Shown here: one piece after another, positions 26,365 through 36,255 of the stretch
Position numbering within the stretch: position 1 is the first letter of the stretch
Layout of the letters: each line of letters opens with the position of its first letter
Virus record (IMG/VR): IMGVR_UViG_2563366853_000005
Location: 1-36,255 of that record
Length of the DNA: 36,255 nt
From: a virus
Lineage: Duplodnaviria > Heunggongvirae > Uroviricota > Caudoviricetes
Strand: one strand, 5' to 3'
The notes under the pieces: generated by a model
Seen by the model: only the letters and a program-made list of their open reading frames with translations
Told to the model about the DNA's origin: nothing
The model's database searches: none
Position numbers and translations under genes: made by a program

Positions 26365-29127
26365 TTATTTGTTCCCACTCTTTACTCCTCTTCGCAGTAG
26401 GTCAGCTTTGTGGCAGGCGCGTTCGGTTGTTTCACAGATTCTTTGTGTGTGCTCTGTGTCGTGAATGGCGCGCAGCATGTCAGAAAGCACAGTAACGGGG
26501 GTTTTCATGGTGTTCTGGTCCTGCTGAAGTGTGGATGCCAGGCGTGCGGCGGCTTTGGGGTCTGATGCCCCCAGCTGTTCCAGATAGCTGGCGACCGGGT
26601 TATGGCGGATCTCCGTGCTGCTTACGCCGTGATTACGGCTCAGGCGCTGCCAGAGCTGCGTGATTCGGCTGTCCGGGCGGGTATCCGGTTTGCGTACAAT
26701 TTCAAATCCCTGCGGTGAAATGATGCTGCCGTCAACGTACAGACTGCCGCCCCGTAACAGGTGCTGCATCTGCTGTTCACCGATATGCAGGCCGAGAGAT
26801 TCAGCGGACTCCCGCCATTCTTTAGCGAGTAATTCGTGGTTATCAGGCAAAGGCCGCTGCTGTTTGCGGCTCTGTGTCCAGCTCTGCATTTCATCACTGC
26901 TGTTTTTTGCCTGTTTGTCACGCAGCGAACGCATCAGCGCCCGGCGTTCGTGCCGTTTCAGTGAGCGCATCCATTCATCCACATCAACGCCGTCAGGAAG
27001 CTGCGGCCACGGTGCTGGCCGTTCTTCCGGCTGTTCTGTCCCGTTGTTGTCCGTTTCCTGTACACGGGGACAGTTATTGCCACGAGTCCAAGGGGCGGCA
27101 GGGCCGCCCTGAAGGTCAAAACCATTTTCGCGGGCGCTGTCTTCCGCTTCCGGTTTGCGTCTTACCAGCTTCCAGTTATCCGGATGCGTGCACACACGGG
27201 AGGATTCCCCGATGAGTGGTGACCAGATCCCGTAAATCTGTACGCTCTGTTCGCCGTAATCGTTCAGCTCATCGGCGAGGTCGTAGGCGGTGCGAATCAG
27301 GTAGTCTTTGCGTGGAACAAGTACGCCGCCCTGTTTCTCTATGTAGGTGGCAAAACATCCTGCATCAGCGGCAGCGAGTACCGCATCCATTGCGTCATCC
27401 TTCAGCCGTTGCGGGCCTTCCGGGTTGCGTGCCATCTGGCTGGCAAGGCGGCGGAGTTCACGCCACACCTGACGGGAGGGGATGCCAAAGAACTGGAACT
27501 GGCGGACCCGGTGAAGGCGTGCCCAACCGATGGCGCGCTCCACGCTCTCGGCCATTGATTTTCCGGTTTCGTGGTCAACGCGTGGTTTGCCTGTTTTCTG
27601 GTCGATGCCATCCACGGCGCGGCTGTCCAGGTTTTTTCCGATGTAGGTGGCGATGTAGCTGGTTGGCGTGCCTTTTGAGCCGTCGACATACTCCGCCTTA
27701 AAGCGCGGAGTAATATCATCGCCCAGCTCGTGACGATCTTCCTGAATGGCAATATCGCGGGTGTGGGACACAATGGTGTCGATTTCTTCCGGATGAGCAA
27801 AGACCATCATATGCCAGTGCACGGTGCCGTCATGGTGAGGCTCCACCGTGCGGATGCCATACCAGCGCAGGCCGTCGCGGTTCAGTTTCTTGCGGACCGC
27901 TGCAAAAAACGTGTTAACCAGGTAATCGCTGGAGTCGCGCATGGTGGCCCCGTTCCATTTGGGATTCGGATGACCGTTCTCTGTTGTGGCGTGGTATTTT
28001 GACGGGCAGGTGACAGTCAGAAACACCGCTTTGTCGCCACGGGCTTCGGCCAGAAGTTCCAGCCCCTTCATGGTGGCCATCATTTCTGCCTTACGGTGAA
28101 CCGGGTTACTTACTCCCGCGTAATACACTGTCTCGAGATCAATCGTGAACCCGTCTTCGTTTTCCAGCATGAAACTTTTCAGGAAATCGCGTGTTTTCTC
28201 GCGCTGTGCGCGAAACTCGCTTAACGCGTCCTGGCTCAGATAGGGTGATGTTTTTCTGGAAACCAGACAGGCGGCGCGGAGTTGTTCTTCTCTCCACTCG
28301 CAACGTAACAGCCACAGTTTGCGTTTCCACCATTCCGCACAGGTCAGGCGAAGGATTGCGCCCGGCAGCAGCTCCGTGTCCGGTTCGTTCCTCCGGTCTT
28401 TATCTGTTGTCAGTGCGTCATAATGTGGAGGCATGATGTGCAGGTGTAACGCCATGCGGGCCAGCATCTGATACGCCTTCAGCGTTACATCCATGGTCAG
28501 TTCGCCATCGGTCGCGCCAAAGCCATCGCAGAGTTTTTCGAAGGTGCTGCTGAACATCGCCGCCGTCATGGTGGCCAGCGTCTGTATCTGGTGTTTGTTG
28601 AGCTGCGGCAGGTAAAGCAAATCGTCCAGGCGTTCGCGTCCGGCAAGGGAGCGATAACCCGGTGTCAGCCAGTGTCCGTCAGTGCGATCCAGACGTTCGA
28701 ATATTTTGCGCAGGGTTCCGCGTGCATAGCGTTCCGCCTGCCAGCTCTTTTTGCCTTTCCGGCGATCGGCTTCCTGTTTTTTGCGCAGGAAGGAGAGGTG
28801 GCGAATAAGTGGATCGCGCAGATAGGACGGCAGCAGGCGCAGCGAGGCCATGGCTTCATCCACCGCGCCGCGTGCCTGTTTTCTGGCGTCTCCTGCCAGT
28901 GCGATGGTTTTGTCCTGTTTTTCCTGTGCGTCCAGGCTTTTATTAATCAGGTTGCCCAGCGGCGTGGCGGAGAACGCCGCATCAGCCATTTTCTGGCGGC
29001 GCTCGTTCTCTGCCCGGTAGGCATCCAGCCAGGAGGAAAGCACGGATTCAGGAGCGGGGATCCCCGTTCCTTCACGCCCTACTGCGTGGCGCGGTTGTTG
29101 CCAGTCCCTGATGTACTCTGTCGTCAT
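26365..29127 (-). CDS. A: replication initiation protein gpA (rolling-circle HUH endonuclease); start uncertain, C-terminal extension relative to P2 A
   Basis: Blocks shared with P2 A including VEPHHDGTVHWHMMVF (P2: VEPHHDGTPHWHMML), FLTVTCPSKYH (P2: FITLTAPSKYH), YIATYIGKNLD (P2: YIAKYISKNID). Confidence 0.85.
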   Translation of the reverse strand: MTTEYIRDWQQPRHAVGREGTGIPAPESVLSSWLDAYRAENERRQKMADAAFSATPLGNLINKSLDAQEKQDKTIALAGDARKQARGAVDEAMASLRLLPSYLRDPLIRHLSFLRKKQEADRRKGKKSWQAERYARGTLRKIFERLDRTDGHWLTPGYRSLAGRERLDDLLYLPQLNKHQIQTLATMTAAMFSSTFEKLCDGFGATDGELTMDVTLKAYQMLARMALHLHIMPPHYDALTTDKDRRNEPDTELLPGAILRLTCAEWWKRKLWLLRCEWREEQLRAACLVSRKTSPYLSQDALSEFRAQREKTRDFLKSFMLENEDGFTIDLETVYYAGVSNPVHRKAEMMATMKGLELLAEARGDKAVFLTVTCPSKYHATTENGHPNPKWNGATMRDSSDYLVNTFFAAVRKKLNRDGLRWYGIRTVEPHHDGTVHWHMMVFAHPEEIDTIVSHTRDIAIQEDRHELGDDITPRFKAEYVDGSKGTPTSYIATYIGKNLDSRAVDGIDQKTGKPRVDHETGKSMAESVERAIGWARLHRVRQFQFFGIPSRQVWRELRRLASQMARNPEGPQRLKDDAMDAVLAAADAGCFATYIEKQGGVLVPRKDYLIRTAYDLADELNDYGEQSVQIYGIWSPLIGESSRVCTHPDNWKLVRRKPEAEDSARENGFDLQGGPAAPWTRGNNCPRVQETDNNGTEQPEERPAPWPQLPDGVDVDEWMRSLKRHERRALMRSLRDKQAKNSSDEMQSWTQSRKQQRPLPDNHELLAKEWRESAESLGLHIGEQQMQHLLRGGSLYVDGSIISPQGFEIVRKPDTRPDSRITQLWQRLSRNHGVSSTEIRHNPVASYLEQLGASDPKAAARLASTLQQDQNTMKTPVTVLSDMLRAIHDTEHTQRICETTERACHKADLLRRGVKSGNK

Positions 29128-29133
29128 ACTGAT

Positions 29134-29499
29134 TTACTTCGTCATACCGTTGAGGGTGTCACGGCAAACGGCAGCCAGCCGCTGAATTTCCAGCACGGTG
29201 TCTTCTGTGTCGGCATGGCGATGTGTGATGCGGATGCTGTCGGCAATCACATCGACGATTGCAGAGGATGGGCGCTGGTAAATGCCAATAACGGACGGGG
29301 TGCCACCTTCAATGCGGTAAAGCCTGTAATTTCCCTCGTGGCTGTCAATCATGTAGCGACCATCAATAACAATCTTTCCGTCAGCGAGCTGCGGTACAGG
29401 CAGGGATTTCAGGTACATGTCATAACGATCACGCACGCGAGCGGCAAGATCACGTTCTGTGTTGAGCAGATATTCAAGAAAGTCGTTGGCGAGAATCAT
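29134..29499 (-). CDS. hypothetical early protein (121 aa)
   Basis: ORF immediately upstream of and co-oriented with A. Confidence 0.55.
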   Translation of the reverse strand: MILANDFLEYLLNTERDLAARVRDRYDMYLKSLPVPQLADGKIVIDGRYMIDSHEGNYRLYRIEGGTPSVIGIYQRPSSAIVDVIADSIRITHRHADTEDTVLEIQRLAAVCRDTLNGMTK

Positions 29500-29571
29500 T
29501 GCGGCAATCCTCTTGTTACAGATGTGCGAAGGCCTCCCGCCGCAAGGTGCAGGAAAGGCCCGGAACAGGAA

Positions 29572-29802
29572 TTAATGGAGTTTGTTTTGCTGCTGGATGA
29601 GCTTTTGAAGCTCGCGCAGATCATCTGCCAGATAGCTGAAAACAGAGGCGGAATAGCTGTTCGATAGTGCGTGACTGCGTTCATGCAGCATATTGATGTG
29701 CATGATATGCGCGACGCGGAATGCGCGGAAAAGTCTGCGGTTGATTTCAGCCTGGATGTGACGACGCTCCGCGATAGCGCGGTGCTGTTTGCGGTTTGCC
29801 AT
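29572..29802 (-). CDS. hypothetical small basic protein (76 aa)
   Basis: GAAGAGG RBS about 9 nt upstream of the ATG at 29802; the longer overlapping 207-aa ORF in another frame was rejected. Confidence 0.5.
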   Translation of the reverse strand: MANRKQHRAIAERRHIQAEINRRLFRAFRVAHIMHINMLHERSHALSNSYSASVFSYLADDLRELQKLIQQQNKLH

Positions 29803-29848
29803 GGTGTTTGGCCTCTTCGTTTGTGAGTTTTTGGATACTCACCAACCA

Positions 29849-30045
29849 GAGTTGAGAATCTCGGGGTGGCGAGACGTACGGGGTTCTCAACACCGGCAAA
29901 CGAAGAAACCGGCCCGACCGAAGTCGGCCCCGTACGCCCCACCATAATTCTGATGCGAAAAAGACGTGGCAATACAGTACGCACAAAAAAACCGCTGGCG
30001 CGGTTGTGCGCTTCGTTTGTCAGCAGGTTGAGAATCCCGGCACCC
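29849..30045. repeat. cluster of GTTGAGAA(T/C)C-CGG motif copies (two direct, one inverted) in a structured non-coding region
   Basis: GTTGAGAATCTCGGGG at 29851-29866; inverted copy GGGGTTCTCAAC at 29882-29893; direct copy GTTGAGAATCCCGG at 30027-30040; CTTCGTTTG flanks the second and third copies in inverted orientation. Confidence 0.6.
29985..30005 (-). terminator. intrinsic terminator (minus strand)
   Basis: Stem AACCGC / GCGGTT (29990-30005) with loop TGGC; on the minus strand followed by a U-run (A-run 29985-29991 on plus). Confidence 0.5.
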
Positions 30046-30141
30046 GTTTTATGAGGTGCAGCAGAAATGTAACCTGACTGATTGCGGCATGGCAAGCGGT
30101 TTTTTTGTGAGAACGGCATACTAAAAAAATCCTGATACTGC

Positions 30142-30166
30142 TCCGGCCAGCGATTTTCACTGGCCG
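30142..30166 (-). other. 8-bp GC-rich hairpin just downstream of the SPFH gene
   Basis: CCGGCCAG-cgattttca-CTGGCCGG; a T-run on the minus strand lies about 12 nt further on. Confidence 0.45.
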
Positions 30167-30173
30167 GGTTTAA

Positions 30174-31004
30174 TTACTTCACCGGAACAAACGGAACAGC
30201 GGTGTTGCTGGTCATGTATTGCGGCAGCGTGCCGTTCCATTTGTTGATTGCTTCCAGCTCCATAACGCCGGGATTCTGGCGCAGAGCTTCACCGCGTAAA
30301 CGAATGGCGTCGGCTTCAGCCTGGGCTTTTGTGCGAATGGCATCAGCCTGTCCGGCAGCTTCTGCGCGCAACATGTTGGCTTCAGCTTCGCGTTGCTTGA
30401 CTTCCTGTTCGCGTTGCAGGGTTTTCTGGTTTGCCGTGACTTTGGCATTAATGCTGTCGATAACGGTTGACGGGTACTCCGGCTTACCCACATATGAGAG
30501 GCTCATTACCTGAATACCGATAGGTGTCATTTCCTCCTGAATGTCTTTAAGAGCTGCATCCAGTAGTTCAGATTTCCCGCCGTCGATAAATTTGTCGGTG
30601 GTCATTTTGCTGGCCAGTCGGTTGAGTGCATCGGCGATCTTCTGGCGCAGGTCAGTGTCGGTAATGTCATCCACGCCTTTGCGGTAGGTCTGAAACACTG
30701 TAGTAACTTTGGATGGATCAACCTTGTAGGCCACACCGATGTGATAGCCGATGGTTGTGCCGTCACTCATCTGGAAGCTGAACGGCTCATCGTAGGTCTT
30801 CATTTGTTTGAAGGTCGGGAAGATGTAAACCTCGGTATTCCAGCCAGTCCAGTAGCGGCCAACGCCAACCACTTCGCCGACGCCTTTGTCGTCGCCCAGT
30901 TTGTTGACTTTGATGCCCACATTACCTGGCTCAACGCGATCGCAACCAACCAGCAGGATGGCGGCAAAAAGCGGGATAATCTGAAAGAGTTTGAATTTCT
31001 TCAT
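30174..31004 (-). CDS. SPFH / band-7 (stomatin-prohibitin-HflK/C-like) lipoprotein
   Basis: Lipoprotein signal MKKFKLFQIIPLFAAILLVG-C; SPFH-like core followed by an Ala/Glu-rich coiled coil (QREQEVKQREAEANMLRAEAAGQADAIRTKAQAEADAIRLRGEA); ATG overlaps the stop of the upstream small membrane protein gene (ATGA). Confidence 0.75.
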   Translation of the reverse strand: MKKFKLFQIIPLFAAILLVGCDRVEPGNVGIKVNKLGDDKGVGEVVGVGRYWTGWNTEVYIFPTFKQMKTYDEPFSFQMSDGTTIGYHIGVAYKVDPSKVTTVFQTYRKGVDDITDTDLRQKIADALNRLASKMTTDKFIDGGKSELLDAALKDIQEEMTPIGIQVMSLSYVGKPEYPSTVIDSINAKVTANQKTLQREQEVKQREAEANMLRAEAAGQADAIRTKAQAEADAIRLRGEALRQNPGVMELEAINKWNGTLPQYMTSNTAVPFVPVK

Positions 31005-31204
31005 TGTTTGATTTCCTTGATGTACTTACTGAAAAGGCGAACAACGCCTGCCGGGTACAGCATGGCAATGAAAATGCCCAGCAATACCAGGAAGGAGCTG
31101 TCTGATGAAATCATTCGGGGGAGTAGTCCTGCATACAGAATGAGAGAAACGAGGACGCATACCAGCGCCCACATGTATGCGCGAAACCAGGTCTTTTTGT
31201 TCAT
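31001..31204 (-). CDS. small two-TM membrane protein (67 aa), partner of the SPFH gene
   Basis: AAAGGA RBS 8 nt upstream; hydrophobic segments WALVCVLVSLILYAGLL and FLVLLGIFIAMLYPAGVV; translationally coupled to the SPFH gene. Confidence 0.6.
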   Translation of the reverse strand: MNKKTWFRAYMWALVCVLVSLILYAGLLPRMISSDSSFLVLLGIFIAMLYPAGVVRLFSKYIKEIKQ

Positions 31205-34226: not shown

Positions 34227-34748
34227 TTAGTTGCCTCTGTTGTTTCTGAGTTGGTTCAGTTTTGAGCTTCTGCCTGTATAAACTCGCTTACCGTTAATGG
34301 TCTGGCAGTCTTCTTTATTAGCTGGAGAGAACTTCCTTTTCTGGCGGTCATACGTCCAGTAACTTTTCCAGTTGTGCCATTCTGGGGGCTCGTGCTCTGG
34401 TAGCTCATCAGCCAACTTGTCCCACTCTTTGGCGTTAAACCACCATACTCCGTCTGAGTTTTCATCTTCCGGGTTTGTGCGCGTCTTGTGTCCCGGCATT
34501 TGACCGCGATGAATGGCTACGCGCAGTGCAGATTTTGTTAGCCCAATATATGCCGCGCCTTTTTCCAGAGAGCAAAGCCCGGCGATCGGACCATCCAGCC
34601 GTAAAGTCGCTCCTTTTTTGTAGGAACGCTTTTTCTTGTTTTCTTCGTGTTCGTCGTCGTTGGCGGCATCAATGGATCCGCTGAGTGTGTCACTTTCCTG
34701 AAGTGGTTGGTGGTCAGATAACTCTTTATCGGCAATGAAGTCCCGCAT
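34227..34748 (-). CDS. cox: Cox/Apl/AlpA-type excisionase-like HTH regulator with an acidic N-terminal extension (173 aa)
   Basis: HTH segment AAYIGLTKSALRVAIHRGQMPG followed by a Trp-rich region (GVWWFNAKEWDKL) as in excisionase-family proteins; AGAGGA RBS 7 nt upstream; divergent from the C repressor gene. Confidence 0.6.
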   Translation of the reverse strand: MRDFIADKELSDHQPLQESDTLSGSIDAANDDEHEENKKKRSYKKGATLRLDGPIAGLCSLEKGAAYIGLTKSALRVAIHRGQMPGHKTRTNPEDENSDGVWWFNAKEWDKLADELPEHEPPEWHNWKSYWTYDRQKRKFSPANKEDCQTINGKRVYTGRSSKLNQLRNNRGN

Positions 34749-34851: not shown

Positions 34852-35193
34852 ATGGTGAACATGTCAAGAGATTACGCCAAAAAACTAAAGGCGATCAGAA
34901 ATGCGGAAAAACTTACACAATCTCAGTTTTCGCAAGTAACGGGGGTTTCTGTAGGGACTATAGGAAATTATGAGTCTGGATATAAACCTGCGCGAATTGA
35001 GGTTGTAGAAAAAGTAATCCAAGTCGAGCGATTCGAAAAATACACTATGTGGATACTTCACGACAAAACATTTCCCGCTGCCGGGCAGGTTGCACCGGCT
35101 CTCTCTCTTGATGGCTCTATTCAGTCGGAGGGCGATCAGGTTTCAATCGGCATTACCCAAAAATCACCCCGATCAGGCCGCAATGTTGGCTGA
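34852..35193 (+). CDS. C: immunity repressor, P2 C-type
   Basis: ...LTQSQFSQVTGVSVGTIGNYESG... and FEKYTMWILHDKTFPAAGQVAPALS parallel P2 C (LSRQQLADLTGVPYGTLSYYESG..., FTKYTLWFMTNQIAPESGQIAPALA). Confidence 0.8.
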   Translation: MVNMSRDYAKKLKAIRNAEKLTQSQFSQVTGVSVGTIGNYESGYKPARIEVVEKVIQVERFEKYTMWILHDKTFPAAGQVAPALSLDGSIQSEGDQVSIGITQKSPRSGRNVG

Positions 35194-35262
35194 CTCTACA
35201 CATTGAGCGAATTACATATCGCAAGGAGTGTTTAGTTAATTTATCCGTTGGAGGGGCTAATC

Positions 35263-36255
35263 ATGTCGATTAAGCAACTCAAAGACGGACGTTATCAGGT
35301 CGATGTCAGACCGCAGGGGGCGGAAGGAAAGCGGATTCGAAAAATCTTTGCCCTGAAATCAAAGGCTCAGGAGTTTGAGAAGTATGTGTTACAGAACTTT
35401 CATGACAAGCCATGGCAGGCTAAGCCAGCTGATCAGCGGCGATTATCAGAGCTGCTTGATGCGTGGTGGATGCTTGATGGTCGTAATCAGGCTTACGGGG
35501 ATAGCTACAGGGTTAGGCTAGGGAAGGTTGTTCGTGAAATGGGAGATCCTCGCGCCAGTCAGATGACGCGAAAATTTATGCTTGAATATCGGTCAGAGAA
35601 ATTACAGGCTGGATTAATGCCGTCCAGTATTAATCGTGACTTATGCGTACTGTCTACCATGTTCACGGTGCTGATTGAAGCTGAGGTCTTTCACAACGCG
35701 AACCCTGTACGCGGTATACGAAAACTGAAAGTTCAGAACACAGAGATGGCCTTTCTTTCTGATGATGAGATTGAACGGCTTCTTGAGCGACTGGAGGGTG
35801 ATGCGCGTCGTGTTGCCATTCTGTGTCTTTCTACTGGTGCCCGATGGAGTGAAGCATCGGAACTACGTGGAGAGCATATCGTTGGCAACCGGGTGACGTT
35901 CTTTAACACCAAAAACGGAAAATCCCGTTCGGTTCCTGTGGCGGATTCGGTCGTGCCTCTGATTAAAACCCGTCGAACGGGGTTATTGTATCAGGTTGAT
36001 TATCTGAAGTTCCGGGAGATTCTTCAGGAGGTGAAACCGGATTTGCCGAAGGGGCAGGCTACGCATGTCATGCGTCATACATTTGCCACACACTTTATGA
36101 TGAATGGCGGAAATATTGTTACGTTGCAACGAATCCTGGGGCACGCAACGATTCAGCAAACAATGACGTACGCTCATTTTTCGCCGGACTTCTTACAGGA
36201 CGCGATCAACTTTAATCCGCTGGCTGAAAGTGTCCATAAACTGTCCATCGATTAG
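35263..36255 (+). CDS. int: tyrosine integrase, P2 Int family (start at ATG 35263; track start 35248 is TTG)
   Basis: MSIKQLKDGRYQVDVRPQG aligns to the P2 Int N-terminus (MAIKKLDDGRYEVDIRPTG); catalytic region ...HVMRHTFATHFMMNGGNIVTLQRILGHATIQQTMTYAHF with the conserved R, H-x-x-R and Y; GGAGGGG RBS 5 nt upstream; stop TAG at 36253-36255. Confidence 0.9.
   Translation: MSIKQLKDGRYQVDVRPQGAEGKRIRKIFALKSKAQEFEKYVLQNFHDKPWQAKPADQRRLSELLDAWWMLDGRNQAYGDSYRVRLGKVVREMGDPRASQMTRKFMLEYRSEKLQAGLMPSSINRDLCVLSTMFTVLIEAEVFHNANPVRGIRKLKVQNTEMAFLSDDEIERLLERLEGDARRVAILCLSTGARWSEASELRGEHIVGNRVTFFNTKNGKSRSVPVADSVVPLIKTRRTGLLYQVDYLKFREILQEVKPDLPKGQATHVMRHTFATHFMMNGGNIVTLQRILGHATIQQTMTYAHFSPDFLQDAINFNPLAESVHKLSID

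Follow-up and report, generated by a model that had tools for sequence, protein, structure and literature searches.

An RNA-based immunity cassette of the IsrK-C4 type probably precedes an epsilon-like gene in a P88-like prophage

The window, that is, the whole 36,255-bp stretch of DNA analysed here, is a P88-like prophage (Xuanwuvirus, P2-like). The early operon is read from the minus strand in the order SPFH gene, RNA cassette, epsilon-like gene, 121-aa ORF and A, and phage P88 has a gene order like that of the window at the 121-aa ORF/A segment. The present analysis concerns the region 29803-30173, which separates the SPFH gene from the 76-aa epsilon-like gene. Public records leave this stretch blank, fill it with antisense 'hypothetical proteins', or place an 'ash family' pseudogene on it. 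A first-pass annotation of the window had described it as a non-coding region with iteron-like repeats and two terminator-like hairpins, either a protein-binding site or a structured small RNA, and was right not to take it for a replication origin. The features of the region and its neighbours are collected in Table 1.

Table 1. Features of the region 29803-30173 and of its neighbours in the window
Feature	Coordinates	Strand	Basis or remarks
Integrase	35248-36255	+	
P2-C-type HTH repressor, 113 aa	34852-35193	+	
cox	34227-34748	minus	
SPFH/Band-7 lipoprotein, 276 aa	31004-30174	minus	Borders the region 29803-30173
Sigma-70-like promoter	30095-30066	minus	-35 TTGCCA 30095-30090, 18-nt spacer, -10 TACATT 30071-30066 (consensus scan)
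IsrK / P4-SeqA-like RNA	30059-29985	minus	RF01394, 62.0 bits (gathering 50), model 1-77 of 77
a1 UUCUCAAC	30034-30027	minus	Loop of IsrK hairpin 2; complement of a' of C4
b1 CAAACGAAG	30019-30011	minus	Single-stranded linker of IsrK; complement of the C4 b' loop
Rho-independent terminator of IsrK	30005-29985	minus	Stem AACCGCGCCAGCGGTT 30005-29990 plus U-run (terminator scan)
C4 / P4-CI-type antisense RNA	29949-29862	minus	RF01695, 79.2 bits (gathering 45), model 1-87 of 87
b' UUUCUUCGUUUG	29908-29897	minus	12-nt loop of the GCCGG/CCGGU hairpin, specificity element
a' GUUGAGAA	29891-29884	minus	Unpaired junction of C4, second specificity element
a2 UUCUCAAC	29858-29851	minus	Directly 3' of C4, copy extends to 29866; predicted target of a'
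b2 CAAACGAAGAGG	29823-29812	minus	Predicted target of the b' loop; holds the Shine-Dalgarno sequence GAAGAGG
76-aa gene	29802-29572	minus	P4 epsilon-like 'derepression protein', putative anti-repressor; predicted regulated target
121-aa ORF	29499-29134	minus	phrog_3237, function unknown; downstream of the 76-aa gene, transcription unit shared
Replication protein A, 920 aa	29127-26365	minus	PF05840 Phage_GPA, 440 bits

Two short motifs recur in this region, and every copy of either in the window lies within it. An exact search of the whole window for GTTGAGAAYC gave three sites, 29851-29860 and 30027-30036 on the plus strand and 29882-29891 on the minus strand, with a chance expectation of 0.13 as estimated from 100 shuffles, none of which gave three. 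The motif CTTCGTTTG likewise has three exact matches in the whole window (29815-29823 and 30011-30019 on the plus strand, 29897-29905 on the minus strand), with a chance expectation of 0.45 and one shuffle out of 100 giving three. For each motif, two of the copies are thus direct and the third is inverted. The repeats that had been noticed earlier are thus real and far above chance; the second segment had been noted without coordinates, and its copies had been counted as two instead of three. When the region is read from the minus strand, the inverted copies fall into unpaired parts of C4, namely the b' loop and the a' junction, and the direct copies are their complements. The repeats are, in this reading of the sequence, the predicted RNA-RNA pairing sites a1/b1, a'/b' and a2/b2 of two known phage small RNAs.

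These two RNAs were identified by scanning the whole window against Rfam, which returned exactly two gathering-level matches, isrK and C4, both in the region and both on the minus strand. The structured small RNA that had been offered as the second alternative was thereby borne out. The promoter-like site ends 7 nt ahead of position 1 of the isrK model, which coincides with the predicted transcription start at about 30059, and it is the counterpart of PisrK and of P4 PLE. Roughly 90 out of 101 related loci show a -35/-10 pair with its end 31 nt (28-32) ahead of a1; these pairs vary in sequence, and their conserved position supports a real promoter. At the other end of the RNA, the 3' hairpin of the Rfam isrK model coincides with an intrinsic terminator of canonical form, read from the minus strand. 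It is one of the pair of terminator-like hairpins reported earlier; the other, at about 30143-30168 just past the SPFH gene, has a good stem, but its T-run does not begin until about 12 nt away. Since the Rfam model of the a1 and b1 targets (c4-a1b1, RF03163) was absent from the window even at E values up to 10, the assignment of a1 and b1 rests on isrK homology and on complementarity. The match between a1 and a' extends to 30040 with one mismatch.

The C4 RNA consists of a long closing helix, a UUCG hairpin and a specificity hairpin. Across 75 distinct homologous sequences, 96.5% of the cells in the fold were paired and 18 of the 27 pairs had changed on both sides, compared with 36-48% paired in slid controls; helix 3 was invariant because the search pattern had fixed it. 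The covariation check across homologous loci that had been suggested earlier therefore supports the C4 fold. The closing helix is acceptor-like and is followed by a nearly invariant CCACC, an arrangement that resembles an RNase P substrate. Downstream of C4, the Shine-Dalgarno sequence contained in b2 is located 9 nt ahead of the ATG at 29802, which is the start codon of the 76-aa gene. The predicted b'-b2 duplex comprises 12 bp, including two G-U pairs, and has an energy of -21.7 kcal/mol, about 2.5 sd better than that of random window segments (-13.4 +/- 3.3 kcal/mol). The energies of b'-b1 (-14.4 kcal/mol) and a'-a2 (-15.7 kcal/mol) lie within approximately 1 sd of the random segments. Because duplex energies alone discriminate poorly, covariation was used as evidence for the intermolecular pairs.

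The gene behind b2 encodes a protein related to the epsilon protein of P4. Against the PF25738 'Derepression' profile it scored 25.2 bits (E 1.4e-5), slightly short of the gathering threshold of 27, while P4 epsilon itself reached 170 bits. In a BLASTP comparison, the 76-aa protein and P4 epsilon were 27% identical over 66 aa (E 2e-6), and homologues of the 76-aa protein with 73-99% identity carry a precomputed PF25738 match and the NCBI name 'derepression protein'. The protein also matched phrog_3688 (E 5e-44), and NCBIfam gave no match for either the 76-aa or the 121-aa protein. In most related loci, the first gene past b2 is of the Rha/anti-repressor type (42 loci) or resembles epsilon (16 loci). 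The 76-aa protein is 91% identical between the window and P88, whereas the C repressors of the two share only 33% identity, so that the epsilon-like protein does not co-diversify with the C repressor. Consequently, if C is the target, the feature that is recognized must be a conserved one.

Related loci were collected with a degenerate DNA pattern of C4, which was found in more than 120 viral contigs. A stricter pattern with a fixed CTTCGG tetraloop and TTTC had recovered one viral contig only and was replaced by the looser one. The resulting 100 non-redundant loci contained 40 different b' loops and 21 different a' segments in 51 combinations. Using one representative per type, an exact complement of at least 7 nt was sought at the expected position, either for the locus's own element (self) or for those of other types (non-self). 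A complement of b' was present at the b2 position in 70% of the self comparisons versus 1.9% of the non-self comparisons, and a complement of a' was present at the a2 position in 90% versus 1.7%. At the upstream sites, the values were 48% versus 3.1% for b' and 81% versus 3.6% for a'. The positions of the sites are fixed. Counted from a conserved AACCC, a2 is found at +22/23 nt in about 100 loci and b2 at +53-57 nt, while most loci have a1/b1 some 95-120 nt upstream. In 67 out of 77 distinct loci, a start codon follows the 3' end of b2 at a distance of 9-11 nt.

The same behaviour was observed among close relatives, for which a set of 15 P88-like leaders with 90% overall identity was used. Nearly all substitutions among these leaders fall within the six sites. 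The pairs between C4 and a2/b2 were 91.7% paired, and nine of them had changed on both sides; taken separately, a'-a2 was 92.5% paired with compensatory change at four of eight pairs, and b'-b2 was 91% paired with compensatory change at five of 12. The pairs between a1/b1 and C4 were 96.1% paired, with 10 pairs changed on both sides, of which the b1-b' helix contributed six of its nine pairs while remaining 100% paired, and a1-a' contributed four of its eight. Slid controls in the same leaders gave 25-55% paired. In phage P88, the flanks are 93% identical to those of the window, and b' (GUUCUGUAGUUG) and a' (UUGUGGAA) are both unlike those of the window, each with matching targets. Copies with 93-94% identity are present in E. 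coli UTI89 and K88. The P88-like group as a whole contains at least eight a'/b' combinations, some of them recombinants in which one element is that of the window and the other is not. The six sites thus differ between phages yet stay complementary, and their pairing is maintained by compensatory change. As to the earlier condition that the repeats be absent or unconserved in homologous prophages, their positions proved to be conserved, and their sequences change, in a compensatory way. A strand-specific count of G-U versus A-C combinations, intended to tell RNA pairing from DNA repeats, gave 95 versus 11 for the b pairs and 3 versus 83 for the a pairs, an excess that comes from constant positions, namely the loop UU opposite the Shine-Dalgarno GG and a fixed C-A combination beside the stem, which makes this test uninformative.

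The two RNAs are members of curated families, arranged in the textbook manner of P1 and P4. The immI region of P1 and P7 is laid out as P51 - a1 b1 - c4 - a2 b2 - icd - ant1/2. The window resembles it in having an RNA of family RF01695 with a' and b' complementary to a2/b2 where the first gene of an anti-repressor operon has its ribosome-binding site and with a1/b1 as an upstream duplicate, and also in that related phages have different specificities, just as P1 and P7 do. The cassette of the window differs from immI in that the gene predicted to be regulated encodes an epsilon-like protein instead of Icd/Ant, in that an IsrK-type terminator parts a1/b1 from C4 and would make them a separate short RNA, and in its location within the early operon of a P2-like phage.

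The immunity region of P4 has the layout PLE - seqA - CI RNA/seqB - seqC - kil/eta - epsilon - cnr - alpha, and its control operates by premature termination. The P4 seqA region (8692-8615) matches the isrK model at 60.8 bits and the P4 CI RNA (8507-8420) matches the C4 model at 74.9 bits; epsilon lies downstream in the same operon and is followed by the replication gene alpha. The window shares with P4 the succession of a promoter, an upstream target copy, a processed antisense RNA (a predicted one in the window) and a downstream target copy, with an epsilon-family gene and a replication gene after them. Unlike P4, which is a satellite, the element that carries the cassette here is a full P2-like phage of the helper type. 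Furthermore, the epsilon-like gene follows the target site directly, without kil/eta, the replication gene encodes a P2-type A nickase and not the alpha primase-helicase, and the loop sequences differ. The CI RNA is the immunity factor of P4 (summarized in PMC4825925).

A further known system is Gifsy-1 of Salmonella, in which an isrK match of 79.3 bits is followed by a C4 match at 34214-34131 (69 bits) and then by an anti-repressor-like gene, and in which the RF03163 model overlaps isrK. The order isrK - STnc1160/'orf45' - anrP thus comprises the same two Rfam families as the window, in the same order, with an anti-repressor gene next, although in Gifsy-1 the context is lambdoid, by antQ, and the anti-repressor belongs to a different family. 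In Gifsy-1, IsrK is transcribed from a promoter of its own, and its terminator is leaky and allows read-through (Hershko-Shalev et al. 2016, PMC4825925); IsrK binds Hfq, a long mRNA isoform arises by partial read-through, and the RNA is described as a structural homologue of P4 SeqA (PMC4825925). STnc1160 is a stable processed RNA from read-through transcripts that lies downstream of IsrK and is complementary to it, and activation of the anti-repressor and induction of the prophage are IsrK-dependent (PMC4825925). The explanation given in that study is IsrK-driven refolding combined with translation of 'orf45', and not repression by C4, and constitutive STnc1160 did not counteract IsrK (PMC4825925). 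Hence even the model system leaves room for more than one direction and hierarchy of control.

Taking these data together, we consider it very probable that the region is an RNA-based 'immunity' cassette of a P88-like P2-like prophage, in which an antisense C4 RNA would keep an anti-repressor gene silent. The most likely mechanism is of the P1 immI/P4 type, with a processed antisense RNA that would block translation of the anti-repressor and with IsrK as a target mimic. This proposal is built on homology and anatomy, together with the covariation described above both within the fold and between the paired RNA segments, and its further steps are modelled on P1 immI, P4 and Gifsy-1. Some transcripts would read through the IsrK terminator, as C4 and the downstream mRNA would require if they are to originate from the PisrK-like promoter. 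From the read-through transcripts, C4 would be cut out by RNase P at its 5' end and by trimming at its 3' end. The free C4 RNA would then pair with a2/b2 and block ribosome binding on the epsilon-like gene, and the untranslated message would subsequently be terminated or degraded, so that the anti-repressor would remain silent in the lysogen. Polarity might conceivably silence the 121-aa gene and the replication gene A as well. No intrinsic terminator was found downstream of b2 by the terminator scan, and control of gene A is therefore speculative. The short IsrK RNA, which bears the same targets, would titrate C4 or refold the long transcript and thereby turn the gene on, and the epsilon-like protein would inactivate the P2-C-type repressor, leading to induction of the prophage.

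A different mode of action for the same two RNAs follows from the experimental model established for Gifsy-1 (PMC4825925). In this case, control would consist of activation by IsrK only: the long transcript would be silent owing to pairing in cis between its IsrK and C4 parts, the short IsrK would refold it in trans, and the C4 stretch would be a structural or translated leader of the 'orf45' kind. Two features of the window are consistent with it. The minimum free energy structure predicted for the leader (30059-29790) joins the a1/b1 region to a'/b' in cis, and a long frame that is also open in relatives begins with a conserved AUG (29945-29943) at the 5' end of C4. However, this frame runs to 29496, out of frame with the epsilon-like gene and with no stop near the epsilon start, and therefore translational coupling of the orf45 type, as between orf45 and anrP in Gifsy-1, cannot work as described. 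The C4 stretch also lacks codon periodicity while its RNA fold covaries strongly, and a2/b2 together with their covariation with a'/b' would be left unexplained. Moreover, the homologous RNAs of P1 and P4 are proven trans-acting repressors; for the P1 RNA, this was reportedly established by Citron and Schuster in 1990. We consequently regard activation by IsrK only as unlikely.

The repeats could also be DNA sites, such as iterons, operators or a partition site, for a phage protein, for example the neighbouring winged-helix or 76-aa product. They are of mixed orientation with spacings of 30-180 bp, regulatory and replication genes are adjacent, and the copies of each repeat change together between relatives. 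Since a co-evolving DNA-binding protein would also give covarying repeats, the argument for RNA rests on the placement of the sites in the fold and at the ribosome-binding site and on precedent. The inverted copies lie exactly in an unpaired loop and an unpaired junction of an RNA with covarying helices, and one direct copy is a ribosome-binding site. Iterons are expected as several, usually at least three to four, direct repeats in regular phase, whereas each motif here has two direct copies and one inverted copy at irregular spacing. In addition, the architecture recurs in phages of lambdoid, P4-like and P2-like type, where the proteins encoded next to it are unrelated, and the sites change whereas the adjacent 76-aa protein hardly varies. 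A protein-binding function of the repeats is accordingly very improbable, and the iteron or partition-site reading of the first-pass annotation is not supported.

Equally improbable is the reading that all or part of a 207-aa frame across the region is a real gene of the 'Ash' family (PF10554), to which the frame has a weak match of 22.4 bits (Phage_ASH, gathering 26), for which PGAP has an 'ash family protein' pseudogene at this locus in E. coli fS58a, and which is open in 15/15 P88-like leaders and in 70/75 C4 sequences: its variability at codon positions 1/2/3 is 0.27/0.26/0.28, without periodicity, 15/75 homologues differ by 1-2 nt in length inside the stretch, which changes the downstream peptide, the substitutions are compensatory for RNA pairing and not synonymous, and the 207-aa frame runs into the well-supported 76-aa gene in a different reading frame. 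The P88 annotation has no gene on the minus strand here, and in P4 a 'cI' ORF similarly overlies the CI RNA, which is the immunity factor in the literature. The 207-aa frame was thus rejected as a protein on its missing codon periodicity and its frameshifting indels, though it is open in relatives, in agreement with its earlier description as a shadow frame in a region with no credible ORF. A Pfam search gave no match for the small antisense ORFs across the region.

Regarding the RNA-based cassette, literature searches returned no description of it in P88-like or P2-like phages. According to these searches, its presence in P88-like P2-type phages, its position directly before an epsilon-like gene and A, and the reassorting of its specificities have not been described previously. 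What had been an unexplained cis element becomes a concrete and testable candidate switch, with coordinates for the promoter, the RNAs, the six sites and the gene predicted to be regulated. The setting is of interest as well, since a P2-like phage would here carry the RNA immunity and epsilon module that is best known from its own satellite P4, and pairing specificities are exchanged among close relatives. For annotation purposes, the intergenic stretch deserves to be labelled as two ncRNA genes.

On a broader and more tentative level, a P2-like phage of the helper type may use an RNA cassette of the satellite P4 type as a second, SOS-independent control of lysogeny. C4 would gate the epsilon-like gene and, through polarity, A, IsrK would trigger induction as a sponge, the a/b loops would form a reassorting 'heteroimmunity code' uncoupled from C, and the epsilon-like protein could derepress other resident P2-like prophages too. 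We consider this extended scenario possible, while doubtful as a whole. The cassette may also account for the induction of P88-like prophages in the absence of an obvious anti-repressor under LexA control. A search for LexA boxes (CTGT-N8-ACAG, one mismatch allowed) found none near the RNA module and thus no SOS link for it, and the number of boxes was at chance level (12 versus 10.8 expected). Phage P88 itself was obtained after mitomycin C treatment.

The Pfam family PF10554, named 'Phage_ASH', appears to have been built from translated isrK/C4 RNA genes. In Pfam profile searches, the old 'cI' CDS of phage P4, beneath which the CI RNA lies, matched PF10554 with 59.7 bits, and the 207-aa shadow ORF of the window matched the same profile with 22.4 bits, while the PGAP annotation placed an 'ash family protein' pseudogene on top of the isrK/C4 RNAs. 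A census of P4 satellites took PF10554 as the marker of epsilon, whereas the match of P4 epsilon itself was PF25738.

The 'orf45' region of Gifsy-1, situated between isrK and anrP, coincided with a C4 match. According to a review, the amino-acid sequence of 'orf45' is variable and its nucleotide sequence conserved, as is expected for an RNA gene. For the first ORFs after C4, beginning immediately 3′ of the downstream C4 target b2 (loci L004, L017, and similar loci), the PHROG profile matches started partway into the profile, with phrog_995 and phrog_3960 matched only from about position 100 and phrog_4908 only from position 47. Therefore, databases list many proteins of these anti-repressor families with about 50–100 aa too many, their starts probably having been called upstream, across the C4 RNA.

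Some viral contigs (L021, L013, and L101) carried tandem arrays of two or three isrK-C4 modules, each of them complete. The unpaired a′/b′ loops differed from module to module, with the targets matched within each module, and these arrays may represent stacked anti-repressor cassettes under RNA control. Between the window prophage and P88, the C repressors shared only 33% identity, with the AGQV-PAL segment conserved, the epsilon-like proteins shared 91% identity, and the RNA loops were also unlike. Consequently, the three regulatory determinants assort independently.

Coordinates of the features compared
Feature	Location	Strand	Remark
PF10554 stretch, 207-aa shadow ORF	window 29496-30119	-	
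PF10554 stretch, P4	L122 8168-8584	-	
PF10554 stretch	L123 1681-1953		
'orf45' region/C4 match, Gifsy-1	L124 34131-34214	-	Rfam C4, 69 bits
Tandem modules	L021 9709-11209	-	spacing 656-659 nt
Tandem modules	L013 4574-5421	+	spacing 656-659 nt
Tandem modules	L101 9082-10117	+	spacing 847 nt
C repressor	window 34852-35193	+	
C repressor, P88	L001 1170-1451	-	
Epsilon-like gene	window 29572-29802	-	
Epsilon-like gene, P88	L001 5282-5512		
SPFH/Band-7 lipoprotein gene	window 31004-30174	-	
67-aa ORF	window 31204-31001	-	overlaps SPFH gene start; 'membrane protein' in P88 record
Strong hairpin	window about 30168-30143	-	
A replication protein	window 26365-29127	-	920 aa; Phage_GPA domain, residues 179-503 only

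The SPFH gene, the 67-aa ORF, and the hairpin look like a cargo cassette (30109-31204, minus strand) just upstream of the RNA promoter, and the homology of several P88-like phages to the window was confined to positions below about 30109 (query position 192). The approximately 400 C-terminal residues of the window A protein gave no confident match in the Pfam search, and the A protein of P88 is of similar length.
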